DNA from: Psammoneis japonica
Taxonomy: Eukaryota
Assembly (NCBI GenBank): GCA_008632985.1
Contig: QPGO01000034.1
Coordinates: 511,311 to 575,310 of the forward strand
Length of the DNA: 64,000 nucleotides
Direction of reading: 5' to 3'
Program-made: the position numbers and the translations under genes
Shown here: piece after piece, positions 37,976 through 63,678 of the stretch
How the letters are laid out: each line of letters starts with the position of its first letter
Position numbering within the stretch: position 1 is the first letter of the stretch
Notes under the pieces: model-generated
Told to the model about the DNA's origin: nothing
Seen by the model: only the letters and a program-made list of their open reading frames with translations
The model's database searches: none

Positions 37976-38799
37976 ATGATGGCTCCAACGACGGGATGGA
38001 TCCTTTTTGCTGCTTTTTTCTTTCTTGAATTAGCTGAAAGTTTCAGTTTTCTTTCGATGGATCCGCAGAGAACGTCATCCATTCGAAGAAACCGCGACGT
38101 GGCACTGTTGCAATTGTCATCACGTGCGGAAGACGAGGCGAGAAAGCTTCGTAAACAAGCAGACGAACTTCGCAAAGAAATTTCTACATTTGAAACAAAG
38201 AAAGACGATATTGTGAAAGAAGAAATGGAAACCCAAAGGCAAATGCAAGCCGAGAAGCAGCAGACACGCATGCGGTATTCCGCTGAAGTTCCAATTCTCA
38301 AAGGCAACGGCGAAGCAGTTTTGGAACGTGTGGACTTCCCCCCTCGCTTCGACAACGGTATGTTGAATTTTGTTCCTTTAAGGGATGGTAAAAAGAGTCG
38401 GATGTGCTCACTATATCGTTGTTTATTGATTCCTGACTTTTGAAAGGAGAATCAAGAATAGAAACCTGCGAGGCGACTCTGCCTCTTGGCATTATTCTAG
38501 GCGAGGATGAGGACATTGCGGGGGCAACTCGGGTAGATGAAGTTGTGCAAGGTGGGAATGGGGAATTGGCTGGTGTAAAGGAGGGAGATTTGCTTCGGGC
38601 CTGTACAGCTTGTCAAGTAACGATGGAAACTCCAACGTGGCAGCTTTTAGCAGGAGGTATTGGTCAGCCCAAAACGAAAAGGTTTATGTATTCCGTTGAC
38701 GGGAGACCATTCGAGGAAGTAATGGATGCGATAGGTTCAAATCGAATGGATCCAGAAGAGCGTCCAGTTGTACTTGTGTTGGAACGACTGGATGGTTGA
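37976..38799 (+). CDS. Predicted plastid-targeted protein with coiled coil and PDZ-like domain; intron ~38358-38446
   Basis: Signal WILFAAFFFLELAES-F; PDZ-like LPLGIILGE..RVDEVVQGGNGELAGVKEGDLLRA..PVVLVLER. Confidence 0.7.
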
Positions 38800-39251
38800 A
38801 GTCTTTGAGAACTTGATGTACGTGCTAATAGAGAGCTTTTCTGTCGATAACCGCTCATCCTCTTTTCTTAGAAATACAAACGCACCTTTTTGGCAAATCC
38901 TCGAGGTGCCCTCTGGAGAGGATTCCATTCGAAAACCAGACTCGACGGAACAGCAAGTACATGAGTTCAAGCCATGGGATGCCCCATTGCGAACATCAGC
39001 GTAACCTCAACGGCAAGTTGCAGTGCCTCACCCCGGTTCTTGTACCATTGTAAGATCGAGGATTTGAAAAACATCGCGATGATTCATACTTGTAGCAAAT
39101 CGTATTTAACAATTCATTCAGCCGCCCTGTACGAAAAGAAATAGAATTGGGTTTTGCGCGCAATTTGCCATTTTAACCCATGATTTGAGCGGACTCTGGC
39201 GCCGGGGTCCACTCTTGCGATGGGGTTTTGGCTGTCCTGACGGACTGTTAT

Positions 39252-39365
39252 ACGATTGACACCATGAAATGGGTCTTTGACATTTGGTCTCAACACGTAG
39301 ATTCGTCACGATTGACACCATAAAATGGGTCTTTGACATTTGGTCTCAACACGTAGATTCGTCAC
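39252..39365. repeat. Two tandem copies of a 56-bp unit just downstream of the CRE ORF end
   Basis: 39252-39307 and 39308-39363 are identical except G39266/A39322. Confidence 0.95.
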
Positions 39366-39369
39366 TTTT

Positions 39370-41200
39370 GGCTTGATCTAGCAATTGTGCAGGGATGGAT
39401 CATCAGCACCGTCTTCCCATGAAGGATGTCTGGCACCACTCTGAAATTAATGATGGGATTCGCGAGCCTCATGGGCAAATGTGGGTTGCCCTCACTGTCG
39501 TGACGACTCGTGACACTCATTCTTGCATTGACAAAACTGCACAATTCCAAGTGTGGCTTTTGCCATTTGTCAGCCAGTCATGCTGCCATCATTCGCAGGG
39601 TTGCCTTGGCCTCTTTGTCAAGCAGTCCATTGTTTCGTGATGCCATGAAAGCAGAAGGTGTGAAATGATGATGTTGCTCAAGGCATGGCTTGAGACACAT
39701 GCATTTTTTCTTTTTCTTTGTGGTCCAGTGGAACAATTTCTGGAGTTTCCTGGACAAGTGTGACTTGACATCCGTGTCAGCTGCTCTGAGGACATCCATG
39801 ATGGCATCAGCCATTCTTTCCCACACACCACAGACTGAGATGTCTCTGCATGATGGTTGCCATCTCTCAACTTGCATGAGTTTGTGGCCACACTCAGCAA
39901 ACCATGAGATTGATTCTTTTTGGCATTTGGACTTGCTGATGCAGGGGTTGATGACAGGGATGATGAGCTCCAAGGAAAGCTTCATTGCCTTGATCAATGT
40001 GGTCATTGAGCTTCTCACGAATCTCATCTTGTCATGAGATGCTGAGGAGCAGCCCACCCTTCTTGAATTGAAGGGCATGATGGGTGGAAAACTTGTGTCC
40101 ACACCCACCCCAGCACTTTGGCAGAACAGGGGGGTGCAACTGCACTGCAGTCAGCGATCATTGTGCAAAGAAGTTGAAATTGACCACTGAGTCAAAAGTC
40201 TCCCCATGAAGGGCAAGCAAATTCAATCTTCATGAACCCTTGTTGTCACTCTTTGCAACCACCCTTTCATGAGTTGGCCCATCTACAATTCACTGCAACT
40301 GAACATTTTGACATCTTTGCAAAGCTCTTGACAAGGGAATTCAGCACCATTCAGCACCAACAGGTGTGATGATCACCATGGCCATGTGCCAGTCTTGGTG
40401 CTGCTGAGCTTCCCAGCACAGCTCAGGCCATCACTTTGGACAAAGTTTTGAGAGAGCTGTTTTGAGTGTTTCCTTGTGCACTTGCACTTTCCTCAGCCAT
40501 TTCTCACCTCACTTCTCAAATCATGTTCTTGCAGCTGGCTAAGGCAAACTTTTTGTGTGTGCAGCCATCCAGAGTGATTTGATCTTGCAAGAGTGTGAGC
40601 ACTCACTTTGGTGCAGCTGGTGTGCACAGCAAGCTCCATCAGATGAGGAATGGACAGCACTGCAGACTTTTTTCAACAAGGCCATTCTCAGGCTGTCATC
40701 TGCCAGAGGGTTTTGCTGATCAGTGCAGGAAGAAATTGACATTTTGCTTTGACTGCATCTTCTGCTTTCTCAAACAATTTGTCACAGGCCTTGGCTGCTG
40801 CATGCATTGTGAGTGCTGCCACTCATGCTGAAGGGACTTTTGAAAACCAGCACAAGCAGTTTGCAGGTGCCAGTGAGTCAACATTTTGGCAAGCCTGCCA
40901 ACCCTCAAGGACTGTGCCTTGGGTGTTTCAACTGTGCACTGCTGCTGGTCTTGTGCTCCTGTTGCTCACACCAACATGATGCCTCTTCCTGGCTGGGGGC
41001 ATCTGTTGGGACAAAAAGAACATTTTTGTTGGAGTTGTGGGCAGGGCAGCACTCATGCTTGGGACCTTGGTCTTGGGATTTCATGACTTGCTGGCTGGCC
41101 ACACTTGGTTCTTGCCAATCCCCAACTCACCACATGGGCTGCAAACACATTTCCATTGCTGCACCAACCATTGCCATGTGTCAACTGGGTGCAAAAGCTG
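39370..41200 (-). mobile_element. Decayed CRE-clade non-LTR retrotransposon (RT C-terminus/thumb + restriction-like endonuclease)
   Basis: Minus-strand fragments: QGPKHECCP..NKNVL (cf. GP.YGY.P..KS.L), HLQTACAGFQKSLQHEWQH (cf. YPQTAYAG.QKSLQ.EWQ), KTGTW..LNGAE, DISVCGVWERMADAIMDV..DTDVKSH, CLEQHHHFTP, GLLDKEAKATL..LADKWQKPH..FVNARMS, IVRATHIC. Confidence 0.82.
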
Positions 41201-44200
41201 GAAAGTGAGCACAAAAACCACTGCTCACAGGAGTTCTTGTGAGTGAAAATTCACCATGTCATCAACAATCATCAATGCATCCTTCACTGCAATGTTGTCT
41301 GTCCTGCAAAGTCTGTCTTGTGGCACCCCAATGTTCCAACACACTCCTTTGCATGAGCCATCAATTGATTGACCATGCCGCCCAATGCCACTTTGACCTC
41401 TCCACCAATTCCCGTGGCACTCATCATCATCTGGTTCCACCAATGAACAATGACCATCATCATTGAGCAAAGGACAGTCTTTTTTGAATTGCCCAACCTT
41501 TTTGCATTTCCAGCATTGGATCTGCTTCTTCCTTTTTGCACAAAGCTTGTGCTCTCTGGTTTCCTCTGTGCAGGTCTTTCACTTTCTACCTCAGATTCAT
41601 GGCGCCACACCCCCTCTGCATGTTTTTCTGTGCAAGCTCTGGTGCAGATGTCACCTTTCTCTGATGGTGCAATGATGGTTCCCACCTGCCTGTTCAGACC
41701 ATTCTTTCTTCTGATGATGTGCCTTTGTTCCAAGATCATTGGCAATCTCATGCAGCAGAGATTGTTTGGTGTTGACCCCCTTTGGTCATTTGCTTGTCAC
41801 TCTTCTTGGCATTTTTCCGTCTTGTGTGCAAAATTTCTGCACAAATTTCAGTGCTGGAAACTCTGCATGTCCAGCAAGCCATTTCAGATGGACAACTTGC
41901 CAAACTGTCAACTGCTCTCTCTCCACACCTCTCAAGTGTTGAAGACCCCCCTTCCACCTGTTGTCAATTTAAGCTCCATGCTTCATGCAGTGAACAATCT
42001 TCTGTCATTGCTGCTCTCAGAAATTTGAATTTGAGACCAACTCAGTGCACATTGTCCTTTCCTTCTGTGTGCGGACCATTTCTCACAAGTTTCAGCAAAC
42101 TTTCTGTGTGTCTTGAAGGTCATTTCTCAGATGATCAACTTGCCAAACTGTCAACTGCTCTTGGTCCATGCCTCTCTGGTGTCTGTGACTCCCCTTCCAC
42201 CCATTGTCTGTTTGAGTTCTCTGCCCCATGTGGCAAACAGTCCTCTGTTGTTGCTGCTGCTGTGAGTTTGAATTCAAGACTGGCTCAGCATGAGTTGGTG
42301 GCCAATTTGTGCTCTGCTCTTTCTCATGTTGCAACCATTTCTAGACTGCCAGTTTTGCCTTTGCCACCAGATCCAGTCCCAAGGAGAAGACGTGATTGCA
42401 GTGTCAAGTGCTTTGATCTTGAAGTCTCATTTTGTTGGCCCTGCATTTGTTGCTTCCAGCTGTTTCTGGTGGGTGCCACAGCCTTGTGGCATCAATCTTG
42501 ACCAGCTGTTGTGCACCCCTGCTGCATCACATGATGTGATGTTCTGGGGCAGTGTGGGTTGGCTTGTTGCTGGAGCTGCAGGGTGGAAGTGCAGCAGCAC
42601 TTTAAATGCAGAATTTGGGTTTTGTTTTAACTGTGCAGGTTTTTCAAGACATGCCAACATTCCTTGGTGCCTTCCATTGGCAGTGCCGCTGACAACATGT
42701 TTCTTTCTTCCTTCCTTCTGGGTGTCACCAGCATCCTTCCTGGCCTGAACCAATTTTCTTTCTTGGCAATTTCTTCTAGGATGAGACTGCTGCACCAGGA
42801 CCCTTTTGCCACATTGGCAATGCTCATGAGCCAATCACAACAATCTTGAAGCCCTCTCCTTCATTTGGACAAATGAGCACCAACTGAGTCCAAGTGTCAA
42901 CTGCCTGGACATGTGCGCAAGCAGATGATTCTCTCTCACTTGCACCAAACAGGGTTGACTTGAAAATTTCCAATGGCGCCACCATGCCCCACTCCTTTGG
43001 GATGCTCTTGAGCTCTGTCACTCCTCCCTCAGGCTTTGTGATGGACAGATTTTGTGCACTGTCCCATGATTGTGTCAAACACCTTTGCCTTCTGCATTTT
43101 GTGGATCATGCCCTGTTTCACACAGTGTTGTGCTGTTTCTCCCAGACAGCCTTGTCCTTCTTCTCTGATGCAATGTCACCCCAATGGATGTCCTGGCTCC
43201 TCCAGTTTGTTCTCCTGCTCCAGAGACACCAGCACCTGCATCTCCAGCCTGAACATTCTCTTTTGTTTTTCTCATGGTCTTTGTGCAACCAACTGCTTGG
43301 TGACCCAACTCTGCAATGGCGCCATGCACCTGCTCCTTTGCTTGGATCTTCTGTGCTCTTTGCTTGGCTGTGTCCCATTGCCCACATTGTCCCAGCCCAA
43401 CACAACCTTGCCTCACCCTCTTTGCCTCAATGACATGGTCAACTTGCATTCACAACTCATGTTCAGTTGTGAGTCTTGGCTGTGCTCACTTTTCAGCTTC
43501 TGCACTCAGCCAACATGCATCAGAGAGGCAAAAAGGCTGCACAAATCACAGGCCATGTTCCCCTGCCTTCAAGTGGTGTGCACACTGCTTCACTTGTTGC
43601 GTTGACCCACCACTGACTGAATTTCACAGTTGTTTGTTGGTGTCTCGCCTTCTTTGTTTGTTTGCATGTGTCCTTGTTTGTCCTTTGCTCAATTGTTGTC
43701 CCACATCCAGAACGTGTCATTTTCCACATTCTGACTTTAACTCAACAATCAACAAGCCTGGCCAGCATGTGTTTGTGCATTTCCCAGCAACTGCACCAGT
43801 TTTCTTCTTGCTTCACTTGCGTTCAGTGACATTTCCAATGCCCGATTGAAACATGTGCATTGAAACATGTGCACTTGATGCAATCATGTTGTTTGTTGAC
43901 ACAATGTGTTGTGGTGGCAGCAAGAACAGCAATGCAATCACAAACGCACACTGTGCATTGAGTGAACCAACTTGCATTGAAAAAACTTCATCCGTTCTGT
44001 AACATTTCTGCAGGAATTTCACTGCATCAACTGTTGTTCACTGTGTCTGGACCAAAGTTGACAGGGGGGGATTTGTGCAGCCTTCATGGCACCTTTTTGT
44101 TGCAACAATGTGGCCAATTGCATCACCTCCACTTCTTCATCCCACCCAAGACAAGCCGGTTGACTCCACTGATGAGATGGTTCTGAAAACAGCAACAGCA

Positions 44201-47200
44201 GCATTCTTGATGCTCCATTGTGTGATGACCCAAGTGTGAGTGCTGCTGTTGGCATGCCATTAACATCTGTGGAGAAAGTGTGCATCCGTGCACTGTGGGT
44301 GCTCCCTTGAGCACTCTCTTGCTCATGCAGACATCAACAACAAAGAGGAAGAATCATCTGACTTCTTCTGGAGTGGTGCTGATGGTGGCACTGAAGTGTC
44401 CTCTGGTGATGACATGCACTCCATTGGTTCAGCAGATTCTGGCAGCACAGAACTGCTGCTGGAGGTCATTCCTCTTGCAAACAATGAGTTTGTCAAAGGT
44501 TTGCATGATGAGAGTGCCCATGCTGATGATGATGATGACAACAATGATGATGATGCCACCAAAACCAAGTCAGTCACTCCCAGAAAAACCAGTGCAGTGA
44601 AAAGATGCAGTGCGCCACTGCTGACTCTTTTTGCATTTCCCGGTTGTTTGTTGAGTTGCCAATCTCCTTTTTTCTTTTTTTGCAAGTCATCAAGATGGAT
44701 GGCTGTGTGACTGTGCTCACAAGTGGCAATTGTCAATGTTGCATTGCCAAACATTGATCTAAGAGGACAATGGAAATGCAACAGGCAAGGAAGGCCTCCC
44801 TTCCCAGTCTCAATTGGAGGCCCACCCCTTTCTTTCTGGCACTGCCTTGTTTGTGGTGCAATTCTAAGAATGGATTGTGTCACTTTTTTGAGCAAGCAAC
44901 CACTGTCAATGATGTCACATTTTTGTCACATGCTGCAGTGAGTTCTGCTTCCACCACTCATCTTTGTGCTGTCTTCCTGCTTTCAACATCCAACCCATGC
45001 ACCTGGTTGTTGTGCTCTTCCCACAATTCCCACCATCATTTCCAAATGGAGGATTCGATCTGCACAGTCCAGTCTGGGGGTGTTTGTTTTCTCCTTGACA
45101 CTGGTGCAGGAGTCCTGAGTCGTGGAGACATCTGGGCTGGAGCAAGTTCCACAGAGTGGAGAAGCAATGCTGAAATTTGATGCCACCCCATGTCTGTCTG
45201 AGCCTTCCACAAAGCTCAACATCTGCAATCAACATCCTCTTGACAAGCCACTTCATCATTGAACCATGTTTACAATGAAGAAAGCAAGAAGTCCCAAAGA
45301 CATGGCATCACATCAAGTTGATCACAATGCTTTTGGAGGCATTGTAAAGATTTGTGGCACAGACTCAGAGCTTTGCCATGTCCACAGTGGAGACTCCTCT
45401 TTTCCTCCCTTGCATTGAGTTCAAAAAAGGCAACACCCACCACTGGTGCAAATTGGTCTTTTCTCAATGCTCAAAACCAAAGATGTTTTTGTGGTTGCAG
45501 CAAAAAATCTTCTGCAAGACATCGGCACCAGCACAAAAGTTCAATCCGGCAACATGGTGAAGAACATGCTTAAGACAGGCCTGGGCACCATCAGGGACAT
45601 TGTCTCTGACAAGGCCCGTGGTGAAAAAAGCTGCCCATTGTTCTGAGCTTGTGGAAGAGCAAATGTGCAATGCATTTTCAAGGACATGCAAGAATCTCAA
45701 CCACCAGAAAATGAAGAATTTGGCAATCATCTGCTTGAGGGTTCATGACTTGATGTGCCGGCACCTCAAGCCAAAACAGAAAAAGAAAAGTTCACCTTTT
45801 CCACAAAAGTCCCATTTTTCCATGTGGGGCAGTCTGCCTGGGAATGGTCAGAAGAAGAACGGTTCTGGATCTGCCAAAGGCCAGTCTTTTGTCCAACCCT
45901 GCCAGTCCCTGACTTGAACTCCATTTCAAACTGTGCTGCACTGTTGTTGTTGTCATTGTTGTTGTTGTTGTTGTTGTTTGAAATGAGGATCCCTTGTGCC
46001 CTCCAAAAGAAAGAAGGATGTGGAACAGCCATCCCATCAACACTCTCATTGTCCCTCCACAGCCATCCCAACACCCCCCTCCTCATGCAACTTGTGCAGG
46101 ACCTGGATGGCAACAGTGGCAACATCTCCATTGCTGATGGCAAGTGCACCCCTGGAATCTGAGTTCATTGCTGAACAATGACCCCCATCTCCATTGCTTT
46201 GGAGGACTGGGAAACTCATTTCCCACAAGAGTGCCAACATGTCCCACCCCCGGCTTGCAAAAAATTGCCAAGGTCGCTCCTTGCATTCACGCATTTTGCA
46301 ATGGGGTCAACAAAGATGGCAACATCAACAAGGACAAGTTCAACCATGAGCTCATTCTGCATCACTCCCCATTGGATTTCTGCCTGCTCATGGACCTCTG
46401 CATTTCAACACATTCATTTGAGTCAGAGAGGCCACTTCTCAATCCAATGTTGCACTCTTGTGAGTTGAGCACTGTCCCTTCCCAAGCAACCAAGATCTCA
46501 GCCAGTCAAACCACACTCCATTCCAATGGCAAGCTGTTTGAAAAGCATTTTTCTGGGCTCAAAGTCCACTTTGGTGCACTGACCTGTTTTGTTTTGGAGC
46601 ATGGCACCAGCAATGAGAGGCATGACAAAAAATGTCCTGGAGGGCCGATGCACAATTGTTGAGTCAACTTGGTTGCAGTGGACAGAATTGTGTTGTTGGA
46701 GCCAATGGCAAAGCAGAGCTGGCACCACATCTCCTTTGCATGGCTTGCTTCAACAAATTCAAAATGAATGATGAGGAAGAATTTTCCCTCCAAGTGAAGG
46801 CCATGTCAGCTGATGCATTCAATTGCACACAGCTCTGCCAGGATGAGTGGCACATTGAATGTTTTGATTTGCCAACTTCTTGCAACAACAACAAGGAGCA
46901 GACACATAAAGTTTGGCCAACAAGTGCAGGAGGAACTTGGTGCTGAATGTGCTGGGAACAAGAATTGCATGATCCAGCTGAAGAACATGAGCCAAGGTGG
47001 CAGGACATGTGAGCATGAGGGCAACCAGGACTGCATTGGATGTCTCAGCTTGTTTGGGATGGACAAGGTTGGAGACTTTTGAAAATGTTGTCCAACAGCC
47101 ACCATGGCAAGGCAGGAAATTGCTGCATCAGCAAATTTGGAATGAGAGACCTCAAGGCAAAGGTTGGTGTTTTTGCTTGTGCCATTGACCACAACTGCAC

Positions 47201-50200
47201 CAGGTTCACAGGGAGTGCTCTGGTCCACTTTGTTTCTGCAAGGGTGATCTGTCCCATTGTCACCAAGAAAAGTTCTTCCTTGATGTGGAGTCTTTGGCTT
47301 TCTCTGGTCAAGACCCTGCTTGTGCACAACATTCATGATGACTTGGGTGTTTGTGGTTGTATGCAGCTGGCAATCATGGCAAGTTGTCAGACTGGCTTCA
47401 ACTGGCTCTTCTACATGGCCACCAGGAACTTGGACAAGCTGCGCGGAGCTTCAGACACTGCCACACTCATTTGTTTCCACAACGCCATTGAACTTTTTGG
47501 AAGAGCTGCTGGGGACATTGGAGCAACCCCTCATCACATGAACCCAAGTGGGCACAATTTCATCAATGTGCACTGCAATGATGCAAACAACAATGACAGT
47601 GGGGATGATGAAAGTGTTGGATCTGCTGCCAAGGACAGTGGCAAGAAGCACCACCACACCTGCACCAATGAATCCAGCTGCAATCCTCTTGGAAAGAGGC
47701 AATGCATCAAATCACCAAATGAGATGATTGCCAATGGTCAGTGTCAAGGGGTGAACTCAAAAATTTGGTTGTGAACCTGAGAATCAACAACATGACATTG
47801 GACGTCATTGCCCTGCCAGAGTGGATTGTGCAAAAACAGGCACTCAAGTGCAAAACTTCTGTCACACTCTCTTGCACCAGTTGAAGAAAACATCTGTGCA
47901 AAATGTTTGCTGGCTGGTCTTGTGAAACCAACATCACCAAGTTCCAGTGATGACAATTCTGCAAATGCTTGCCAGATGTGGCACAATCATTCTGGGACAC
48001 AAAGAAGATCTGTGGGACTCAGTTTGTCTGGCAACAAACCTTGGTGCTGCAAAGCAACTTGCTCACCTGATGAACAATTAAAGGGTGGAAGCATTGGAGA
48101 TCATTGTGCAAAATTTTGGAGCTGCCTGTCACAGCAACAACTGCAAGGAGTGTGTCACCTGTGACAGCCACAGAGACAGAATCAAAGATTTGACAAAGAA
48201 ACATTTGTCAAGAATCAACATCTCTTCTCTCCCTCATTGGTGCAGATGGCATTGCTGGCATTTAAAAACATGGGATGTGACACTGGGAGAAGACACCAAC
48301 TCTGCCAGAAAAGCCTGTGCCGATGAATCTTGGGCAGACAAGAAAGTTGATGTTGCTGCCAATTCAATTGACAACAAAGACAAAAACCGACAGCACCAAT
48401 GTTGAGGCTGGTGGGATTGGGGACACTCCCTCAGATGATTTCATTTTTGACAGTGCTTTGACACAGGAAAAAGGAGGAGACCAAATGGATGCAAGCAATG
48501 ACAAGGCACTGATTTGCTGATCTGCCAACCAAAGACACCATTGTCAACATCCCCCCCCCCCCCCAGGAGGTGCAAATTTGACAGTGAGTTGGATGGAGCA
48601 AATGAAGCAATCCTTTGAAAACCTTCCAGGATCAAGGTCAAGAAGGTGCTTTTCTTGTGCATGACACAGACCAAAGACATTGACGTTGCACCACAATGTG
48701 CTGGATGGTGCCAATGATCATTTTTTGTTTTGTCATGACACCAAGCTGCAATCCAGCGCAACTGGGCTGCCAGCATGGCAGCAATTGTTGTGCAACTGTG
48801 GCCACTCCAGGCACAAAGATTGCAAATTTTGCACAGCATCTCTCAGCAATGGACATAAAGAACAACACCTGAGCTGCAACAAGTGTGGCCCCAACTTTCT
48901 AAATCAAATGCTGAGCAAGTTTGGAGGCAATTTTGTGGAAATCAACATGGACTTTTTCTGGTTGCAAAAGGGCTGGTTGAGCAATCAACTCAGAAAAAGC
49001 TTCTCTTCAGCAAGATGACACCAGATCCAGGGGTCGCAATGAAAAAGAAGATGGAGCCTTCTTTGTGCCTTTTAACATTGAGACATTTGCTGGTTGCACC
49101 AAACACAAAAACACAATGCAGTTCTTCATTTTGTCACCCCCACAACTGGAAACAAAAGTTTTGCTTCACAAGCCACGCTGTTGCAGTTGCTTGGATGAAT
49201 GGTTGTGTCACAAGAAACTGGGGCTGGACTGCCAATGCCAGGTGGAGAAGCACCTCACTGATGTCTTGCACCAGGAAATCAGGGAGTTCACCACAGAACA
49301 CATGTGTTCTTGGGCTGTTGAAGTGTGGGCTGGACCAAGGAGCAAGCCCCAGCAGGTCAACATTTGTCAACAAATTTTCTTAGGAAGAGGCAACACATGT
49401 GACAACAGTCATTGGTGTCTTTGCCAGCCAGAGACCAAAATGAGCAATCTGACCATTTGGTGAGATTCCTGGGTGCTGTCCCTGACAGGAACAGACAAAA
49501 CTTGGCCGTGACGGCATGACAAACAACAGTGTCACTCAAATGGGTCAAAACACCAAGAGTGCAGTGACGCACATCAAGGTCAACTTCCACTGTGCATTGC
49601 TGTGTTTCTGTTGCACATTTTCCCAAACTTTTTCCCAAATGAAGTTCCTTGTTCACCATGTTGGACAATGTGGATTTTCCTCTGAGGTTTCCTGACAAGC
49701 AAGACAATTGCACTCTTGCCCAGCTGATGGATGCAAGGCAAAAACTGCAGGAGGGTGAGTGGCACATCTGCCCAGCTGCTGAGAGCATCACATTTGCCAC
49801 CTCAGCAACTTTGGAACAACTCAAGATAAAATTGACACTCTTTTGCCCCATGAGGGAAACTGGCTGCATTGGTTGCCATCATGTTGAACAGAACCAACAA
49901 ATGTGCAATCACTGCGTTGGGCTGGCAGACCAACTGGGACACCACATTTGGGGAAGTTTCCCAATGTGCAAGCCATCACAACTTGTTGCTGCCAGTGCTT
50001 CATCAATGCCCACTTTTTTTGAGAAAGCAGAAGGATGGTGCATGGAGCTTGACATCAAAGACACTCCTTTTCAAGGAGAGGATGGACCCATGCACTTTCA
50101 AAGCCAAGGCCCCTTCAACATTGTTGACATGCCAACAGCTGACAAGAAGCTGCAACAAAAGAACAGATTGATGGCAAAGAGAAGCAATCTGAACATTGCT

Positions 50201-50600
50201 TGCAAAGGCCCTCATTGTCAACTGCACTCAGTTGATGTGTGGTGACTTGTGTGCTGCTTGGCTGTGTCCAGAGATGCACAACCAGCTGCAAGTTGTTGAC
50301 AACTTGCCACCAATCATGCAAAAAAAATCATCCATGATTTCCTTGAGGTTGTGGCAGTGCCTGCATCAATTCCAACTGACAAAAATCATTGACAATTTGC
50401 TGCCAATCATTCCTGAAGGAAAACATGGTGTGTTGGGGCCCAGTTTGTGTTTGTCAGCACAAGAAGCAAGACACACAGAAACCTCTGCTGAGTGATGCAA
50501 AACGGCCCAGCTCCATGTCAAACTCACAGTTCTTTACATGTTGTGTGGGAGCCACCTTGTCCCTGCCCAAAAGCTGCACTTGTGTCCTTTGCCATTGGAC
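41200..50600. pseudogene. Series of decayed transposon-cargo-like coding remnants (mostly + strand), families not securely identified
   Basis: Extreme TpA/CpG loss. Residual protein-like frames at 41782-42501, 44288-44620, 46144-47774 and 49065-50245. Confidence 0.5.
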
Positions 50601-50619
50601 TCGCCTGTCTGTTGTGCTG

Positions 50620-53100
50620 TCATCTCTCTTGCCCACTTGACAAAGACCTCAGCCCACTTGATTTGGGGGGCAAACTGCCATGACTGTGTGCTCTTTCCTT
50701 CCATTGGGTGGGAACATCCAAGAGGGGACAGGGTCTGAGCAATGTTTCATCTGAAACACAGAGGGCCACTCTTTGTGCAGGAGATGGCAATGTGATGCAT
50801 CGACAGATTGCCATTGCTCTGAAATTCTTGTTGGCAATGTGTGAACAGCCCAGTGTCTTCATGGGTTGACTGACAGCTGCAAGCTTGCAATCAACAGAGT
50901 GAACAATGGCCTTCACATCACCAGTCTCCTCCTTGCAAATTCCAGTGGCTCTTGCCGGGTGCATGTCTTGTTGGAGTTGCCGTCCATGTCAAAGTTGACT
51001 GCAGCCCAATCACACCGGGTGATTGAAAAGTGTGTGCAGCTGGGCATGATTTTTCCCAGTGTTGCTGTCAATGGCAGAGTTGCCACAACAAATTGTGGTG
51101 TCCATGCATGACACAACTCTCTTTGTTCCAAAAACAAGGGCTTTGTTGTCAAGCTGCATTTCCTCTTGGGAAGAAGCAGACAGGAACAGCGACAATGCAT
51201 GTGACAATGAAGAGCACATTCAAAAGGAAGCAAAGCTGGGCATTTTGGAAAGCATCAAGCCAGCACACCCATCACCCCTTCATCAGTTTTTTTTCACTGG
51301 GCAGGAAAACTGACATGGGTTGTTGAGGTCTTGCACAACATTGGCAGATTCGGGTGTGGGTGACTCCACTTTTTTCTTTGCCATGGTCTTTCTCAACCTG
51401 TCATGGACACACTTCTCAATGTTGGTCTCAACCTCTTTGCAAAGCAGGCCTTGGCACCTGTCCTGTGGGGCGAGACATGCAAGGGATTTGATGCATTCAT
51501 GGGAGGAGCATGAGATGGATTGCTTGCCATTGATGGCCTTCAGAATCTTTCACCACAATTCAACAAACAGCTGGTCCATCTGGAAATCATCAAAGTCGTC
51601 TTGCAACAAAAAGCCAAAGCCATGCAACTGGAGGTTCTTGAAGACAAGTTGGATTGCAGAAGGTTTTTGGTCAAATGCATCACTTTTGTGTCATGGTCTG
51701 TGGTGCAGGCAAATCTTTCTTTGAAGGGAAAGGCACTGGGTGGCAAGGCTGCTTTTTTTTTTTGTAGAAGATTCCTCAGGTGCTCCACCATTGGGAGTGT
51801 TGGATGGTCTTTTCCTTTTCTGTCTGCACCAAGCAGAAGCTGTTTGATGGGACTGCTTTTTCCCAGAGGTTGTGTTGCCCGATTGGCTGCCATTGGACCC
51901 TGCACAAGGAGAGAGCACATTGGCTGACATTGCCCACCCAAGTTTGCCATCCTTCTCCTGGGTGAGTGTTTCTGAAGATGCTTCAAATCCTTCAACAAAA
52001 AAAAGTGTGTCATGGTGTGCCTGCATGTTGGTGGACAAATCATGTGGTGCTGCATCATCCTTGAGGGAGTCGCCATTTCATTGGTGCAACCAAACAAACC
52101 ACCTCCACATCTGTGCTTGGCATGAAACCCAAATGACACCAGAAGAAAGAGTGTTCACGAGCTTTCCTCTTCACAATGAGGGTGCAGAACAGCCAGGGTT
52201 CAAGTGGATGTTGTTGACAGGAATTGGTTCCTGTCTGGTCTGTGCACAAGCCTGTTGGAAGAAGGAGGTCCTTCTCTGGATCAAAATCTTTGGGGAGATT
52301 GTTGCAAGTGTCTGTTTCTCTGAGGCCACAGTCATCTGTGGGAACAAACTTGTGGAGCTGTTCCTGCATTGATTTGTTGACATTGAGATTGTGATGGTCT
52401 TTGAAAAGGGAGCAAGCAAGCAATTCCCTCAACATGTCCTTCATTTGGAAACGAGCCACTTGGTGCCCACAAATGATGCATGTGTCTGGCTTTGGCATGT
52501 GCACCTTCTTGTGAAGGCTCCTCACCAACTTTTGTGCCAAAAAGCTTTGGATGCATCAAATTCACTCTTCTTGTAGAGCCATCACAGCAGGGTGAGCAGT
52601 GAATCATAAAACCCTCCAGCAGCACCAGAGTTGTCACACAGTGTGATCAGCTGAAGAGAAGCTTCCTCAGCCAACAAAAAGCTGCACCCAAGCAGAGAGG
52701 ATGACTGTTCCTTGCCAACATCAGAGGCCTCCACTGGCAAAACATCATCTTCATTGATGTCACATTTGTGGGTGGAGTTGGTGCTGGGAAACATCTCAAA
52801 AAGAGACAGGTTGTGCCCTTGTTGTCTTCATTGGAGTGAGAATGTTGGCATCATTGGAGTCATCATCTTGTTCATCAGATGCACCACTCTTGAAATCAAA
52901 GTTGGCAGCAGCAAACTTGACATTGCGTCCCGCCATTGCACCAGGCAGGGGATGAAAGGGAGGGAAGAGCTGAAGTGCCGGTGGGGGAACTGATGCTGGA
53001 GAGATGTGTTGACAGTGTTTCCAGAGGTGCCAGCAGAGTTTGAGCAAGATTGGCAGGAGGATGACAGGAAGGGCTCCTTGTCCCATTGATGATGAGCAAG
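50620..53100 (-). mobile_element. Decayed, rearranged Plavaka-type (CMC/CACTA-related) transposase gene
   Basis: N-part LQLITLCDNSGAAGGFYDSLL; core DLLLPTGLCTDQTG..QQHPLEPWLFC..RKAREHSFFWCHLGFMP (cf. LPI.LY.D.T..YPLEP..W..LG.IP); C-part RCDWAAVNF..HPAR..AIVH. An unrelated fragment interrupts at ~51300-51900. Confidence 0.72.
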
Positions 53101-53559
53101 CAACACAGTGGCTTGGGACAGTGTGCCTGGATCACTGGCTGCAACATTGACACAACTGATTTGGTTTTGGGCTTGTGGCAGAAATGGCGGGCATGAACCA
53201 TGTGCAAGGATCAAATTGCAGGGGGGGGAACCAAGATTGATGCAAACAAAGGGAAATTTGTTGGAAGCAAGCAAACTGATTGATTTCAAATTGGACTGTT
53301 GAGCAAGCACGGGTGCTGATTGAGAAAGCACATGTCTCAAAGCTGGACAGACACAAATGCCAGAGAAAATGGAATTTGAAAATTTTGGACATTGAGGCAT
53401 TGTTCAGTCACAAGCAATTGCGTTGTTTTTGAAACTCAGGTGAGTGAATTCAAATTGCATTGGCAAACATCAGAGAATGCATGAAATCAATGACAGCCAA
53501 ATGCTCAAATCAGAAAATTTGCAAATGCAGAAATTCCAGCTTGCAATGGCAAACAGCCA

Positions 53560-55035
53560 GGCAACAATGCATGCATGACCTGTGCTGCTGAGAGGAGCAC
53601 TGGGAAAACAAACCACACAAAAAATGGCATGGAGACATGGCAACCATGGTGCCCCCAGAGGCAGCAGATCAATCCAGCCATTTGGATGAACAATGACAAG
53701 AAGGTGGGCAGAGACATGGTCAAGGTGAAAGACCATGTCAAAGAAAAGGTGTTTCTCAGTGTCACAATTGTGTTTGATGCAAGGCAGCCAGAGGAAACTG
53801 GCATGCTGTGCAGAGACTGTACCCAGAATTGTGCACCAATGCTGATGGATGGAATGCTTGTGGAGCTTCCAGAGGCTGAACAGAAAACACACCCAAATGA
53901 AACAAAACAGGTTGCAGCCACCAGAGTTGGCAGGCAATGAAGCAATCCAATGCATGTCAGGCCCAGCAAGACAGATTTCACAGCAAGTTCTGTTGCTGAG
54001 GATTGTTGTGAATGAGGAAAAAACAAACCAACATTGGCGTTGTGTTGTTGCTGACAATGCAGTGCTTTGTGCATGCTGCAGCAAGAACAATTGCATGTTG
54101 TCTTTGCCAGAACATTTCCAGGTCAACAGTCAAATCCACCATTGCACGGACAGCACTCTGCAGCCACTTGTTGCAACCGGTCATGGGAGAAATTTGTTGG
54201 AAGAAGAGCCTCTCCGAAAACACAAGGTTGGGCACATTGTGTGCCAAGGCATTTGCCCACATGCTCTAGAAATTTTTTTGTTGCGTGGCTTGCAGTGCAG
54301 CACAAGAGCAAGAACAAGGACACAGCTGTTTGATGACAGACTGCAATGTGGGGGGTCAATGACCAAGAAAACCCCACTGGAGGAAGGGAAGACTTGTGTG
54401 AAATTCTGATGCTGCCAGATGTTGCCATTGCCAAGCCAGAGGATGCAAACAGATCAAGCACATTTTTGAAATTTTTGAAAAAGACCCTGAAGAGCCCACA
54501 GAGCAAGGAATGCACAAGGAGACAGCAAACAAGTCTAAGGAGGTGTGGGAGAAGTCCCTCAAGAGCTGCAATGAATGCATCAAGAAGGTGAGAACAGAGC
54601 AAATGACACACAGGAGCAGCCAGTTTTGATGGAGGTCATGACCAAGCTGGAAAGCAACAAAAACCTGCCAGACAAAAGGAGCATGGGGTGCTGAGAAGAG
54701 AAAGTGCATGAGACGCCCAAAGTGCTTCATCGCAAGAGACTCCAAGAATGGAGCTGAAGAAGGTGCATCCAGGAGATGACACAAGGTGCCTGGGAAGTGC
54801 AAAGGATGGTTGCTGAGGGCAAACAAGTTCTTTGAGCAGCTGGTGAGGGAAATGAAACAAGACATTGCAAGCAAACAATTGGGCCAATGGGAAGATTTGC
54901 ACAAGAAGACAGTGGCTGAGCACAAAGAGAAAGAGGAGGAAAAGAATGATGAGTCAGGGGACAAAAGCAACTGCATGGTGAGCTGTGCCAAGACACATGA
55001 ACTGGAGGAGTTGATGCGAGTTTGGCAGAGATGAC
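53560..55035 (+). pseudogene. Decayed accessory gene divergent from the Plavaka transposase
   Basis: Fragments VKDHVKEKVF, LLQPVMGEICWKK..AKAFAH..NFFVAWL (cf. EAFA..LEN..W), KCKGWLLRANKFFEQLV (cf. GWS..F..L). I recall these motifs from diatom TE-linked hypothetical proteins. Confidence 0.55.
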
Positions 55036-56091
55036 AAAAAAGCAGCACCCACATTGTCACAAATGACATTGCATGCAAAGTGCACAAAGCAGCACCCACA
55101 TTGTTGCAAACAAATGATGCTGCAAAGTGAGCCCAAACTGTCAAACTAAATTCGAGCATGCTGCTGCCAAATGGCAATTTGGGAAACCAGTCAACCAGTC
55201 AACTGCAACTGGGTTGCAACAAACATGTTGGTTTGCACATCATTGATGTGAACCCACGGACATTTGTTGGAGGTGCAGGACATCCATTTGTTTGGGCCTA
55301 GGACAAATCTGACTGATTCAGTCACAAATAAATTGATGTGCTTGCACTCACACATGTTGGGGCAGACTGAGGCATTGTCGTCCGCAGATGGGGCAGCGGC
55401 AACGGCAATGGCGGCAATTGTGGAGAGGAGGTGTGTTGGCCTTTGCAGCCCATGTGGTGTGGCAAGTTCAGTGATCAGTGAGACCAAGCATGTGCAAGCT
55501 GGTGAGCCATGAAATCTTAACACAGAAGCTAAAAAGGCTGGCTGGGAAGTCATCAAGAGTCCAAAGGTGCAGCTCGAGTCAGACAGTGGATTGCAGCAAA
55601 CAAGCTGCTGGCTCGATGAAGGCAAAGAAACAGTCTCTGCGGCTGTGAGGAAACTGTTGAGGGTCTGCTGAAGTGGGGAGTCGAGCATTGGTCCCAGTCC
55701 GTGTGCCACCATGCCTCTGGTGGATCGCCTTGAACGACATCTTCCTTGCTGCTCCTAAAAAGGGAAGCGACCGTTCCGAAGCGTCATGTCATTTTACTGC
55801 ATGCCGTGAAAGAAAAGGTGGCAACGACACTAATAAACATGCATAGCTTACAGACTTGAATATAAGTTTATATTGGGTCATCTCAGTTTCGTGACTGTTC
55901 GTTTGGCCGTCGTCGCGTGGATGTGCGAGAGCACGGGTGAGGGAGTGAGGGAACGGACAACACACGCAATTTCACCACAACCCAGCCACAACACACAGCG
56001 TGAGAAGGGTGCTGTTGTTGAAGTGAGTCACGTCGTTTCAACCTATTAAGAGACTTTCGTTTCAAAGCCTTTGCCTTGATTACTGTGCATC

Positions 56092-58203
56092 ATGCCGACG
56101 TTCAGTAAGAAGAAGAGGGGGAAGTCAAAAAAGAAAGCTGCCGAGCTGCCTCTTCGTAAGCTCGTTCAGAAGCGGCTGCTGACTGACGTCTTCCACAATA
56201 CAATGGGTACGTAAGGAACTTACCAGCTGCTTTGACCTGCACTTTTCAACTCGAGCTCATTTTCATGGGATTTTGTCTTTTGTTTGCTAATGGCGTATGC
56301 AGAGAAAAGTACCGGATGGAGTGTGCTGATCGTTGACCATGCCGCAACGCGTGTCATGTCTTCTGCTGTCGGGATGTACGACCTAATGGAGCAGAAGGTC
56401 TGCGGAGTTGAGGATTTGTCCAAGGCCCGGGCCCCTTTTAAGGATATGAATGCGATTTATCTGATATCGCAGAAAGAAGACAGCGTCAATCGAATGATTG
56501 CTGATTGGACGCGGTCTGACCCACTGTATGGCGCGAGTGTCTTTGTGTACTTCTTGGGGCGAATCCCAGACAACCTACTGGAGAGGATCAAGCAGTGTAA
56601 GCCTCTCCTTCGAAGGCTTAAGGCTCTTGGGGAACTCAATGTTGACTTTCTTGCTAAAGAAGAAAGAGCCTACCATTTCGACATGCGGTCGTCCTTCACC
56701 CAGCTTTTTCTCCGTACAGGACCCACCGTGCCGGAACTCGACATCGTTGAGAAACTTGTAACTGTGTGCGCCACCCTCAACGAGTATCCACACATTCGGT
56801 TCAGGTCAACCTCAGCCTTGTGTTCGAGTCTTGCAAATATGTTTCATCTTAAAATGAACGAATTTGTGGGGACGAACGAAAAGTGGTGGTATCATGGTGA
56901 TGCCGCGCATTCGGACAGGGACCGTTCGACCCTCCTTCTTCTCGATCGGTCTGATGACTGCCTTTCACCGCTTATGCATGAATTCACCTACCAAGCCATG
57001 GTCACTGACTTGCTCCCTATGGAAGATGATGTGATCACATTTCAATCTGAAACATTCGATTCTGGCGGAGACGGAACTATGGCGAAGGATGTTATCCTGA
57101 ATGACAATGATGAAGTATGGGTTGAACTTCGTGGAAAACACATTGCCGATGTGGTCCAGATTCTGAGCGATCGCATTCGGGCTGTCGTCAACTCCGGGAC
57201 AGGTGCGAATATGAATAAGAAGGATAAAGGAACCATGAGTTTATCCCAGATGGCAGATACTCTCAAACAGTTGCCAGAGTATCGTGAAGTCATGTCCAAG
57301 CTTTCGCAGCACATGCACATTGCTCACCAATGTCTTGATATATTCAAGAAGCAACAGCTCCTTGATTTGTCTGAATTGGAGCAAACACTCGCTACCGGTC
57401 AGACCGACGAAGGACGAAAGCCCAAGCTGGCTGAAATGGTATCGCAGGTCGAAGGCAAGCTTCGAGAGTTACGCAATCCGACGGACAAAATTCGTCTGCT
57501 TTCTATCTTCACCACGAGTCAAAAAGGCCTGAAGCGCGCTGATCGCGATCGACTCCTCAGAGCAGCGCAGCTTCCCCCCAGCGAGCAGAAGGGGATTGAC
57601 AATCTGGAGATTATGGGCGTTCCGCTTGTGGCGACAGGGGACAGTAAGCGTATCTCTTCCTTTTTCGGGTAAGGAAGCGAAACACCACCTTTCTTCTTGT
57701 ACATGTTTTCATTGATCTAAAGTTTTCCTCTCTTTTATTGTGACAATCTAAATCTCTCTAGACAAAAAATATCGTCCTCTGGAGCAATCGACGAAGGCAG
57801 CGAATATGCGGGAAGTCGCTATCAGCCACCTCTCAAGAGTATTCTGGAAGACATCGAGGAGAGCAAATTGAGCATTGACGATTACCCTAGCGTTTTGCCT
57901 CTCCCAGAAGTTGGCGGAAGCACAGGCACTGCAGTAAGCGCAAGGTCCGCGAGGGGGTCAGGAAGCGCCCGGAGGGATGACCGCGCATCATCGCGATGGA
58001 AACGAAGCGACAACTCGAAGCCTAAGAAAGCTGTGTTCTCGGGCGGACGGCAGCTAATATTCATGGTTGGCGGCATGTGCTACTCAGAGCTGCGTACCAT
58101 TCGGGAGGCAAACAGAACTGGATCTAAAGAGATCGTCGGTGGATCTACGCATTTCGTCAAGCCCGCCGAGTTTGTAAGTGACCTGAAGAGTTTGAGTGGG
58201 TAG
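56092..58203 (+). CDS. Sec1/Munc18 (SM) family syntaxin-binding protein; introns ~56207-56303 and ~57669-57761
   Basis: WSVLIVD, VCATLNEYPHIRF, LLLLDRSDDCLSPLMHEFTYQAMVTDLL, DEVWVELRGKHIADV, LEQTLATG, SRYQP, LIFMVGGMCYSELR, GGSTH. Confidence 0.95.
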
Positions 58204-62309: not shown

Positions 62310-62906
62310 TAGAGAGTAGAGTAGAGAGAGAGAGAGAGAGAGCAGCACCAGCTGTTGTGCTGTGAGCTCTCTCTTGTCACATTTGACGGCAAATTGGCTT
62401 CGCCAATTTTGATCGTTCGTTTCATCCGCCTGGAGTGCTCACCGGCCTTGTCATGGGCATGCTCTTTCGCTTCAAAAACCTCTGCTCCGACACTGATGAT
62501 GCCAAAGCAAAAATGAGACTGCTCTGCCTTCGACTTCAAGCTCGAGGCTGCAAGCCCAGCAAACTACAACCGCTCTTCCACAAGGCACATGACCGCATCT
62601 TTGGCAATGCCACCGGAACAATCCAAGCACCTCAGTCGAACCCCATCTTTCTGCACATCCCCTGTCATCCGAATGATCCGCCATCAAGTGAACTGCAGCA
62701 AATTTGGAAAGGTGCCATGGCCACCCCTCCCCACTCACAACCCCTCTCAAACCTTCGAAATCACGCTCGACAACGCATCGGCCTTGACCGCATGATTGTC
62801 TGTCACAGCCGCTCACACAACCTCGGAAACCTTCTGTCTTATCGCAAACTTTGCATCTCCCATGGCCCCCCAGTTTCGTCCTACCGGATTACAAATAGGG
62901 AGGCCC

Positions 62907-62941
<35 letters not shown>

Positions 62942-63235
62942 GGTGATTTGAATTAATCAATCGAGTCAACTCGCCTGTCCTCCACCACTCGGATTTTTTA
63001 ACGCAACAACCTCAACCACGTCAACAACAACAGCCGGCCGCTGATGAAGCCACCGCGAAAGTCTCATTCTCCTGACTTCGGCCAACGTTGTTGTGCCTGC
63101 TATTTACCGAAATAGTTGGATAAATATCCGATTAAGTAGCTCTACCTTAGCTACTTGTATTCTTTGTTTGTCACATTTGACGGAGAATCGGCTGCGCCGA
63201 TTCGTTCGTTCGTTCGAGAGAGAGAGAGAGAGCAG
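62310..63235 (+). mobile_element. 5'-truncated Penelope-like retroelement (RT thumb/C-terminus, 3' region with hammerhead) embedded in (GA)n/TAG microsatellite
   Basis: HPPGVLTGLVMG..R..LCSD..RLQARGC..L.PLF.KA, FLHIPCHPNDP.S..Q.W, MIVCHSRSHNLGNLLSYRK (PLE thumb). A ~45-bp direct repeat at 62374 and 63168; (GA)n at ~62325, ~62910 and ~63217. Confidence 0.8.
63025..63093 (+). ncRNA. Type I hammerhead ribozyme motif
   Basis: Stem I GGCCG(63036-40)/CGGCC(63079-83), extended by CAACAAC/GTTGTTG. Core CTGATGA(63041-47); short stem II GC-CACC-GC; GAAA(63057-60); stem III GTC/GAC; cleavage triplet CUU. Confidence 0.8.
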
Positions 63236-63251
63236 CTCTCTCCAATGGCAG

Positions 63252-63678
63252 CTGTGCCGCCCCCCGCGCGGCGACATGAACTGAGAAACAGCTGGATCCG
63301 CCTCTATTCTCCAATAGAGTGGGGCCTATACTAGAGTAGAGAGTAGAGTAGCTAGCTAGAGCTACTTCTACTAGCTAGTGCAGACAAACAGAAGTAGATC
63401 TCTGGCTAGCTCAGCCACACACGGCAGCTGCAGAGCTGATCTAGAGTAGAGAGAGAGAGAGAGTAGCTCTCTCTCTCCCTAGTAGTTCCTGTGCCGACGC
63501 CCCCCGCGCGGCAACATGAACTGAGAAACAGCTCGATCCGCCTCTATTCTCCAATAGAGTGTGGCCTTTACTAGAGTAGAAAGTAGAATAGCTGGCTAGG
63601 GCCGCTTCTGCTGGCTAGTGCAGACAAACAGAAGTAGAACTCTAGCTAGCTCAGCTACATACGGTAGCTGCAGAGCTG
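63252..63678 (+). repeat. Two copies of a 240-bp-period CTAG/GA-rich tandem unit
   Basis: 63261-63438 aligns without gaps to 63501-63678 with 17 mismatches. Confidence 0.95.

Follow-up and report, generated by a model that had tools for sequence, protein, structure and literature searches.

A 64,000-nucleotide (nt) stretch of the genome of the diatom Psammoneis japonica (positions 511,311 to 575,310 of contig QPGO01000034.1, GenBank assembly GCA_008632985.1; hereafter the window) contains a nest of degenerate repeated elements, at 39450-55755, in which TA and CG dinucleotides have been replaced almost completely by TG or CA. It is very likely that this reflects a real process that acts at the DNA level, targets TpA, and is confined to mobile DNA. 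The explanation we favor, with moderate confidence, is targeted editing of TpA to TpG or CpA of the type found in the chlorarachniophyte Bigelowiella natans, overlain by a slower CpG decay of methylated transposons. Adenine deamination is proposed as the chemistry more tentatively, by analogy with that organism. Our searches found one report of targeted A:T to G:C editing of chromosomal DNA, a 2026 preprint on this single chlorarachniophyte (Mettrop et al., bioRxiv 10.64898/2026.01.13.699255, 2026-04-14), and a system of this kind has thus been described once, in another phylum. An earlier reading of the window, made from its letters only (the sequence-only reading), had not been aware of any description in diatoms. 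Full-text literature searches likewise turned up no account of TpA-depleted transposons in diatoms; for B. natans, the preprint reports the same signature. What the present analysis adds is a case in a diatom, an end state at saturation, a CpG overlay that can be separated, and, among public metagenome proteins, Tyr-less sister copies that differ by Cys/His exchanges.

Dinucleotide Composition and Edges of the Block

Observed/expected (o/e) dinucleotide ratios were calculated in 1-kb windows, and expected counts for the blocks were derived from flank frequencies, with Poisson P values. Between 40001 and 55000, the 1-kb windows have a TA o/e of 0.01-0.06 and a CG o/e of 0.03-0.15, with TG and CA at 1.5-2.07 and a GC content of about 0.47. 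The rest of the window has a TA o/e of about 0.5-0.8, a CG o/e of about 1.0, and a GC content of about 0.48. The block as a whole holds 38 TA against 666 expected (P = 1.6e-227) and 98 CG against 960 expected (P = 3e-279); 94% of the expected TA and 90% of the expected CG are lost, leaving 6% and 10%. This bears out the sequence-only reading, which had described TpA as nearly absent across a nest of about 16 kb. Its hand count for 46021-46980 was exact (one TA, at 46907, and four CG, at 46251, 46275, 46290, and 46646), and its figure of two to three TA per 60-nt line in the flanks agrees with the flank TA frequency of 0.041, or 2.4 per 60 nt. The TA frequency in the block is 0.0023.

The four pyrimidine-purine (YpR) steps sum to 0.2372 in the block and 0.2390 in the flanks. 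Block TG plus CA (0.229) is accounted for by flank TG plus CA (0.140) together with flank TA plus CG (0.099), less a residual of 0.008, and the remaining 12 dinucleotides have block/flank ratios of 0.81-1.12. The conserved YpR total and the flank-like frequencies of the other dinucleotides indicate that the block is ordinary genomic DNA in which each TA or CG became TG or CA through one transition. Selective avoidance of TA and CG, one form that a native composition of these elements could take, would not require the YpR total to be kept. GC content is nearly constant (0.474 in the block and 0.480 in the flanks), as it should be if A:T to G:C and G:C to A:T changes nearly balance. CpA is 1.66-fold enriched in the block. 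The block/flank ratio is 0.06 for TA, 0.95 for AT, 0.91 for GA, and 1.07 for TT. Error-prone repair by Pol eta at WA hotspots, one of the mechanisms offered by the sequence-only reading, was tried against these ratios and rejected: AA is not depleted (1.12), and AG reaches only 1.06.

The TA edges of the block are abrupt. On the left, flank-side TAs end at 39354, 39379, and 39448, and the next TA lies only at 40284; on the right, a TA at 55530 is followed by those from 55756 onward. TA and CG in the flanking DNA are normal right up to the block edges. CG reappears gradually, 200-300 bp inside the block, at three edges (those at 39450 and 55756, and that of a second block at 2812, described below), and it persists in the outermost 200-300 bp of blocks where TA has already been lost. 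Sharp boundaries and spared host genes had been claimed before; both were recovered, with the TA edges at about 39450 and 55756 and the return of CG spread over 200-300 bp inside them. The residual TAs at 39650-55350 are enriched in TTAA (9 of 36, o/e 5.7), with no ATAT or ATAG and one ATAC. Residual CGs over the same interval are enriched in CCGG (o/e 2.6) and GCGC and are scarce in TCGA (o/e 0.41) and ACGA (o/e 0.35).

Contigs of 31-mers, built independently from the reads of a sequencing run (X1) that may come from the sample behind the assembly, were used to judge whether the block exists outside the assembled sequence. Their word depth is 59-78 on the block and 60-62 on the flanks, and the long pieces listed (0.7-2.8 kb) each differ from the window at 0-2 places. 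The X1 contigs over the block show no two-strand conflict of the kind expected of a misread modified base. We give next to no credence to an artefact of assembly, polishing, or base-calling at modified bases, or to a native composition shaped by TA and CG avoidance. The possible identity of X1 with the assembly's sample would favor an artefact, as would the four of 38 residual TAs that read TG or CA in X1 (40541, 44760, 45345, and 55299); reproduction of the block at flank-like depth from the reads opposes it, and answers the sequence-only reading's own concern about assembly or polishing. At three further sites, 40096, 50920, and 52101, X1 reads CG and the window TG or CA. These differences at the targeted dinucleotides may be allelic, recent mutations, or consensus errors.

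Altogether, 909 X1 contigs fall on the stretch, 116 of them at 99% likeness or more, 94 at 95-99%, 323 at 90-95%, and 376 below 90%. The 26 bins that lie within the block have summed word depths of 82-1914 and the four flank bins 60-62, and the depth changes in the same bins as the TA edges. The many diverged contigs and the raised summed depth indicate that the block consists of families with many diverged copies. The sequence-only reading had called the hypermutation repeat-restricted. The change in summed depth at the block edges agrees with this, whereas the B. natans target is reported to be single-copy (Mettrop et al., 2026), which means that repetition need not be the trigger. Differences from the other genomic copies number 385 in all, 40 of which were inspected as sites, and fall at 62-70 places per transition type and 10-19 per transversion type. 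For differences resting on a single contig of unique depth, 7 of the 8 among those listed set TA or CG against TG or CA.

Just outside the left edge lies a 58-bp direct tandem duplication (39252-39365, 98% identical) of normal TA and CG content, and the X1 contigs break there (39296/39336).

Direction of Change and Independence of Copies

The best-identified element in the block is a DNA transposon, a Plavaka-like (KDZ-type) DDE transposase remnant on the minus strand at 50588-52790, whose relatives were found with HMMER and tblastn. It carries an internal deletion, six in-frame TGA stops, and frame shifts. A full HMMER search with the open reading frame (ORF) at 52058-52555 on the minus strand brought up 161 relatives at E ≤ 1e-3 (best 2.3e-25, 44% identity), many of them 1100-1400 amino acids (aa) long. 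In tblastn, the relatives' residues ~160-420, ~750-1020, and ~1160-1320 map to 52790-50588. The Pfam family Plavaka (PF18759) matches three of the eight relatives scanned; only P0005 lies above the cut-off (53.1 bits vs 26.3), the other two falling just under it (23.7 and 23.2 vs 26.3). The window ORF lacks a Pfam match of its own; the LY.D...RYPLEP block is common to it and the Plavaka-matching relatives. The Plavaka assignment of the sequence-only reading is supported by these results. The two motifs it had cited, LCTD (52238-52249) and HPLEP (52196-52210), are present on the minus strand and align to LY.D and (R)YPLEP, in which Tyr occurs in 95% and 78%, respectively, of 41 full-length relatives.

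These 41 relatives were aligned, the window's five translated segments were added as separate fragments, and a leave-one-out control was run on the relatives. At columns with at least 50% conservation, the window keeps 81 of 142 residues (57%), where the relatives' leave-one-out median is 72%. In the window, no Tyr is left at the five Tyr-majority columns, where Cys (TGC), His (CAT), Cys (TGC), Cys (TGT), and Phe are found; left-out relatives have 68% Tyr, 1.5% Cys, and 3.1% His at such columns (binomial P = 2e-5). The nine Arg-majority columns read Arg twice (AGG and CGT), Cys twice (TGT), Gln twice (CAA), His (CAC), Lys, and Gly. Cys, Gln, or His thus occupies five of the nine, and the control has 78% Arg (P = 2e-5). 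Only 2 Tyr remain in the 536 aa of the window fragments, compared with a median of 2.9% in Plavaka-like relatives. The replacement of Tyr by Cys or His, and of Arg by Cys, Gln, or His, indicates that the ancestral element had TA and CG at these columns. The loss of conserved Tyr and Arg from a transposase remnant with six in-frame stops and an internal deletion also opposes the idea that the block is TA- and CG-poor by native composition.

The sequence-only reading had claimed the change from conserved Tyr to Cys or His for three element classes. The claim holds for the Plavaka-like element, and the identities of the other two were not confirmed. The motif HLQTACAG of its "CRE" element is present on the minus strand at 40846-40869, in a 367-aa piece (40300-41400, minus strand, translated through its stops) that has no Pfam match and no homolog among 201-643-aa proteins. 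For the "accessory" element, in which DY was said to read DH, no relative was found; an Atlas search of the ORF at 53846-54406 came back empty.

An internal tandem duplication on the plus strand at 41814-42288 provides two adjacent copies for comparison (41814-42045 and 42058-42288, 72% identical). Over 224 aligned positions, they are separated by 10 CA/TG swaps; no other class of double difference occurs more than three times, and 32 of the 48 remaining single differences are transitions. A CA/TG swap demands two simultaneous transitions, unless each copy started from TA or CG and took its own course from there. That such swaps separate neighboring tandem copies therefore indicates that mutation occurred after the duplication, in place. 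At least two further CA/TG swaps (46503/4 and 52413/4) separate the window from other genomic copies among the differences listed.

TG and CA are about equally frequent in the main block (1891 and 1841). Their order along it is random (runs test z = +1.08; chi-square 137.7 over 162 bins of 100 bp), and in the gene-rich flanks they are clustered (runs z = -3.8). Processive strand-specific tracts, as from a single round of repeat-induced point mutation (RIP), were sought in the main block and none were seen. The footprint consists of many independent single-site events on either strand. Editing at the RNA level, in which an ADAR-like enzyme would hyperedit transcripts from A to I before reverse transcription, or in which an edited master copy would be propagated, is very improbable. 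It could account for a preference for TA, in that ADARs favor a 5' U before the edited A (Mettrop et al., 2026, Discussion), and for the predominance of transitions among the copy differences counted above. Such editing would convert TA to TG on the sense strand only, and the equal, interspersed TG and CA, without tracts, exclude sense-strand editing followed by reverse transcription. Further points against it are that the best-identified element is a DNA transposon, that the depletion runs continuously over different elements and noncoding DNA to one shared edge, and that the adjacent tandem copies were mutated in place after duplication. ADAR and APOBEC enzymes share with the footprint the reported use of deamination against selfish nucleic acids; they are reported to act on RNA or single-stranded intermediates with a one-strand bias, whereas the footprint is symmetric and lies in chromosomal DNA, including a DNA transposon.

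The same footprint appears in public metagenome proteins. Among the 150 relatives listed, P0145 (1290 aa) and P0021 (391 aa) contain one Tyr each. P0145, P0331, and P0332 come from ENA and P0021, P0333, and P0334 from JGI/IMG, all being metagenome assemblies compared at the protein level only. P0145 differs from its cluster sister P0331 at two positions, both Cys/His exchanges. It differs from P0332 at ten: six are Cys/His, and the others are Tyr/His, Thr/Met, Ala/Val, and Asn/Asp. All ten are pairs to be expected from an original TA that was converted to TG in one copy and to CA in its sister. The distinct Cys/His sites number six, and five of them, like the Tyr/His site, fall in columns where Tyr is the relatives' most frequent residue; position 443 of the P0145 comparison is Tyr in 39 of 40 relatives. 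P0021 reads IFCID...QRHPLEP where its sister P0333 has IFYID...HRYPLEP. To judge from these protein sequences, near-identical copies appear to have been resolved independently at TA sites, with almost nothing else changing.

TpA and CpG Loss as Separable Processes

A second TA- and CG-depleted block occupies 1-2811, where it is cut by the start of the window, and is less complete than the main block. It holds 13 TA against 115 expected (11%) and 38 CG against 166 expected (23%), with 317 TG against 203 and 335 CA against 191. At its right edge, TA is back abruptly at 2812 and CG is already back from about 2584. None of the four ORFs of at least 150 aa scanned in this block carries a Pfam domain.

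A third region has lost TA only. At 62323-62839 on the plus strand (517 bp), within a 5'-truncated copy of a multi-copy family with a ~750-aa ORF, there is 1 TA against 21 expected (P = 1.5e-8) and there are 24 CG against 30 expected (P = 0.14). TG plus CA amount to 92 against 72 expected, a gain approximately equal to the missing TA. The ORF here, at 62387-62953, has 36 relatives at E ≤ 1e-3 in a protein search (best 9e-49) and aligns only to residues 586-751 of a 752-aa relative. Of the conserved Tyr columns, the three that precede 62840 have Cys, Cys, and His (codons TGC, TGT, and CAC), and the two that follow it are still Tyr. At eight of the nine conserved Arg columns, Arg is retained, in each case with a CGN codon. 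The family is represented by 129 confirmed stretches in metagenome contigs, and the TA o/e is 0.42-0.87 in all 80 loci retrieved; it is therefore not natively TA-poor, a further point against native composition. Loss of TA with retention of CG shows that the TpA process is separable from CpG decay. Taken together with the tapering of CG at the block edges, this fragment indicates that the TpA process is the faster and sharper of the two.

Seven of the environmental loci (L015, L028, L032, L060, L071, L072, and L080) have a CG o/e of 0.20-0.43 with a TA o/e of 0.42-0.69. These low-CG, TA-normal copies indicate that CpG decay without TpA loss also occurs in other hosts. Runs of (GA)n lie at both ends of the TpA-only fragment, at 62321-62343 and ~62915-62945. 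The GA microsatellite seems to be part of the 3' end of the family, whose relatives also end in Glu-Arg repeats.

A single machinery, namely a dual-specificity deaminase or a recruited complex that acts within marked DNA on A in TpA and on C or 5-methylcytosine (5mC) in CpG and converts all YpR to CA or TG, would account for the joint loss of TA and CG over 16.3 kb and at 1-2811 with similar completeness (6% and 10% left). According to reports cited by Mettrop et al. (2026), ADAT2 enzymes act as deaminases on A as well as on C in DNA. We nevertheless consider a single machinery unlikely. The fragment at 62323-62839 lost TA and kept both its CG and its CGN Arg codons, CG survives in the outer 200-300 bp of blocks where TA is gone, and 210 of 211 mutations in the larger B. 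natans region are A to G or T to C.

In B. natans, TpA hypermutation affects integrated DNA of nucleocytoplasmic large DNA viruses (NCLDVs) and virophages (Mettrop et al., 2026). According to the preprint, 231 of the 302 nuclear mutations in 15 mutation-accumulation lines fell in two integrated viral regions; 230 of the 231 were A to G or T to C, and the GC-ward ones were all on TpA. The rate was about 1000 times background, in some lines only, and the larger region had essentially no C to T excess (1 of 211). Adenine deamination was proposed and an ADAT2-like candidate named. The reported long-term signature is TpA depletion with CpA plus TpG gain, clustered in 1-kb windows, and domains of DDE endonucleases and reverse transcriptases are enriched in the TpA-depleted clusters. 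CpG goes unmentioned in the main text of the preprint. Shared with the P. japonica block are the restriction to TpA, products that are TpG or CpA according to strand, and confinement to foreign or mobile DNA beside normal genes. The hosts differ, one being a chlorarachniophyte (Rhizaria) and the other a diatom (Stramenopiles), and so do the targets, which are reported as viral insertions in B. natans and are transposon remnants here. TA frequency is 0.0023 here, near saturation, and is given as 0.033 in the B. natans NCLDV region. We read the CpG loss in the main block as a second process.

RIP in filamentous fungi changes C to T mainly at CpA, creates TpA, and lowers GC content. Like RIP, the footprint is found in mobile or repeated DNA, has sharp edges beside host genes, is dinucleotide-specific, involves only transitions, and destroys ORFs. 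Unlike RIP, it destroys TpA, enriches CpA, leaves GC unchanged, and has no strand-specific tracts. Decay of CpG by deamination of 5mC resembles it in that CpG goes to TpG or CpA within transposons only, with CGN Arg codons read as TGN or CAN in five of nine columns. The poverty of surviving CGs in TCGA and ACGA is a likeness both to such decay and to the RIP-like TCG hypermutation of basidiomycetes. CpG decay cannot, however, remove TpA, makes up half of the footprint here, and is absent from the 62.3-kb fragment. The sequence-only reading had postulated a second, strand-symmetric, TpA-directed process, separate from 5mC decay and running the other way from RIP. This is supported by the conserved YpR total, the parity of TG and CA, the change of Tyr to Cys or His, the TpA-only fragment, and the CA/TG swaps between copies. 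In the diatom Phaeodactylum, transposons are reported to be CpG-methylated through DNMT5a, without which DNA methylation disappears and young transposons escape repression; for 31 of 60 diatom species, DNMT4 genes related to RID are reported, with a function not known (PMC9998398).

In the explanation we favor, the block would be a nest of dead mobile elements whose DNA was altered in situ by two transition processes, one superimposed on the other and each specific to its own sequence context. The first would convert TpA to TpG or CpA (A:T to G:C) on either strand independently, site by site, would stop within ~100 bp of the mobile-DNA edge, and would have run nearly to saturation. Its most likely chemistry would be enzymatic deamination of adenine in DNA to hypoxanthine at 5'-TA, fixed as G at replication, and the candidate enzyme is a deaminase of the TadA/ADAT2 type, brought to DNA that is silenced or foreign. 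The second would be decay of CpG to TpG or CpA, most simply by 5mC deamination in CpG-methylated transposons; it would be slower and would taper toward the block edges. Between them, these processes would eliminate the codons for Tyr, the CGN codons for Arg, and the stops TAA and TAG, and the elements would be inactivated. The composition, its presence in the reads, the direction of change, the strand symmetry, the independence between copies, and the separability of the two processes are demonstrated here. We infer the deaminase, CpG methylation, the signal for targeting, and a role in defense; the sequence-only reading, which spoke of a genome-defense system and a DNA adenine deaminase, had likewise proposed the first and last of these. 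Numbers in the preprint (211 mutations, 3,132 generations, and 6,169 TpA) would imply, by our own arithmetic, a rate of ~1e-5 per TpA per generation, at which 94% loss would take ~3e5 generations.

Thymine, rather than adenine, could be the base that is mutated. A TET/JBP-type dioxygenase would oxidize T at TpA in silenced DNA to 5-hydroxymethyluracil (5hmU) or 5-formyluracil, which would pair with G or be misrepaired, giving T to C. 5-Formyluracil mispairs with G, some algae carry 5hmU, and a strand-symmetric footprint on a palindromic dinucleotide fits this chemistry equally well. We regard it as quite improbable, given that the sole experimental report of the signature proposes adenine deamination (Mettrop et al., 2026).

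Several points weigh against targeted TpA editing with superimposed CpG decay, or against parts of it. Because TpA is palindromic, A to G and T to C on opposite strands are indistinguishable, and adenine deamination therefore rests on chemistry and the preprint's proposal rather than on data from the window. The near-equal loss of TA (94%) and CG (90%), seen in two blocks, could mean one machinery. CpG is co-depleted here, for which the B. natans regions, as reported, offer no precedent, and the absence of C to T change reported there is found only in the fragment at 62323-62839. The TA-free zone of that fragment stops at 62839, within the element's ORF, for which our explanation offers no account. 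The TTAA-rich residual TAs suggest a dependence on wider sequence context, from small counts. Column samples are also small, with 5 Tyr and 9 Arg for the Plavaka-like remnant and 3 Tyr and 9 Arg for the 62.4-kb fragment. Lastly, X1 is perhaps the assembly's own sample; it rules out assembly and polishing errors and is not to be taken as an independent isolate.

On the favored explanation, the window presents the end state of the B. natans process in a different major lineage, one of major marine primary producers. It is possible, if doubtful, that an adenine-directed counterpart of RIP is an old and widespread genome defense of stramenopile, alveolate, and rhizarian (SAR) algae, covering diatoms, chlorarachniophytes, and the environmental hosts of the Tyr-less transposase ORFs. 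In that case, a natural enzyme would recognize chromosomal DNA that is silenced or foreign and would deaminate the A of 5'-TA on either strand. A new insertion would be saturated in roughly 10^5-10^6 cell divisions, in diatoms alongside CpG methylation, and the enzyme would be a naturally occurring double-stranded-DNA adenine editor. If the responsible enzyme is a DNA adenine deaminase preferring 5'-TA, it would be a natural analog of the engineered adenine base editors. The responsible gene should be findable by comparative genomics, as one common to B. natans and the affected diatoms and absent from unaffected ones. For mapping the system across eukaryotes, a cheap computational handle is available, in that long ORFs devoid of Tyr are left behind by TA-free blocks, with Cys/His exchanges between sister copies; public metagenome protein sets already contain such ORFs. 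Transposon annotation and dating would also be affected, as edited copies lose Pfam-detectable domains and seem older than they are.

Other Elements and Flanking Genes

The highest-copy segment of the block, at 41185-43509, is bounded by imperfect inverted repeats (41185-41262 and 43430-43509, 76% identical by self-BLAST and arm alignment). Summed depth over the bins at 41171-43706 is 1028, 518, 1914, and 303. The segment may be a single nonautonomous DNA element. No Pfam domain was detected in the 34 in-block ORFs of at least 100 aa, or in the 130 of at least 70 aa (E up to 0.5, noise only).

The 62.4-kb family was searched for recognizable domains. Pfam scans of eight relatives and of long ORFs gave only a sub-threshold DUF3915 match and one match at E = 0.55. 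Sequence searches of the PDB gave no profile match and one match (E = 0.0033) to an uncharacterized protein, and NCBIfam gave only a sub-threshold match to the Drt3a reverse transcriptase (E 0.01, 15 bits vs a cut-off of 200). Relatives carry the precomputed label PF26215. The longer relatives may contain a motif resembling a reverse-transcriptase palm.

Both genes flanking the main block are spared. The left one (38014-39129, minus strand) has normal TA and CG to about 39380. The right one (56034-58200, plus strand) belongs to the Sec1 family, with Pfam matches at 3.5e-88 and 1.2e-17, and has normal TA and CG from 55756. Contigs from a second sequencing run, X2, skip GT..AG gaps in both genes (89 nt in the left, on the minus strand, and 96 nt in the right), so X2 is probably spliced RNA. 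X2 has no long contig inside the block, which does not count as evidence of silence. A flanking Coq4 ORF has named relatives that are all from diatoms: Nitzschia sp. Nitz4 (52% identity), N. inconspicua (46%), and Fragilariopsis (46%), with further relatives at 46-50% in Cylindrotheca, Pseudo-nitzschia, Odontella, and a Bacillariaceae metagenome-assembled genome. These identities place the window in a diatom that is not a near relative of the species named. A tandem repeat of ~230 bp at 63217-63438 and 63448-63678 (86.6% identity) has normal TA and is unrelated to the depleted blocks.

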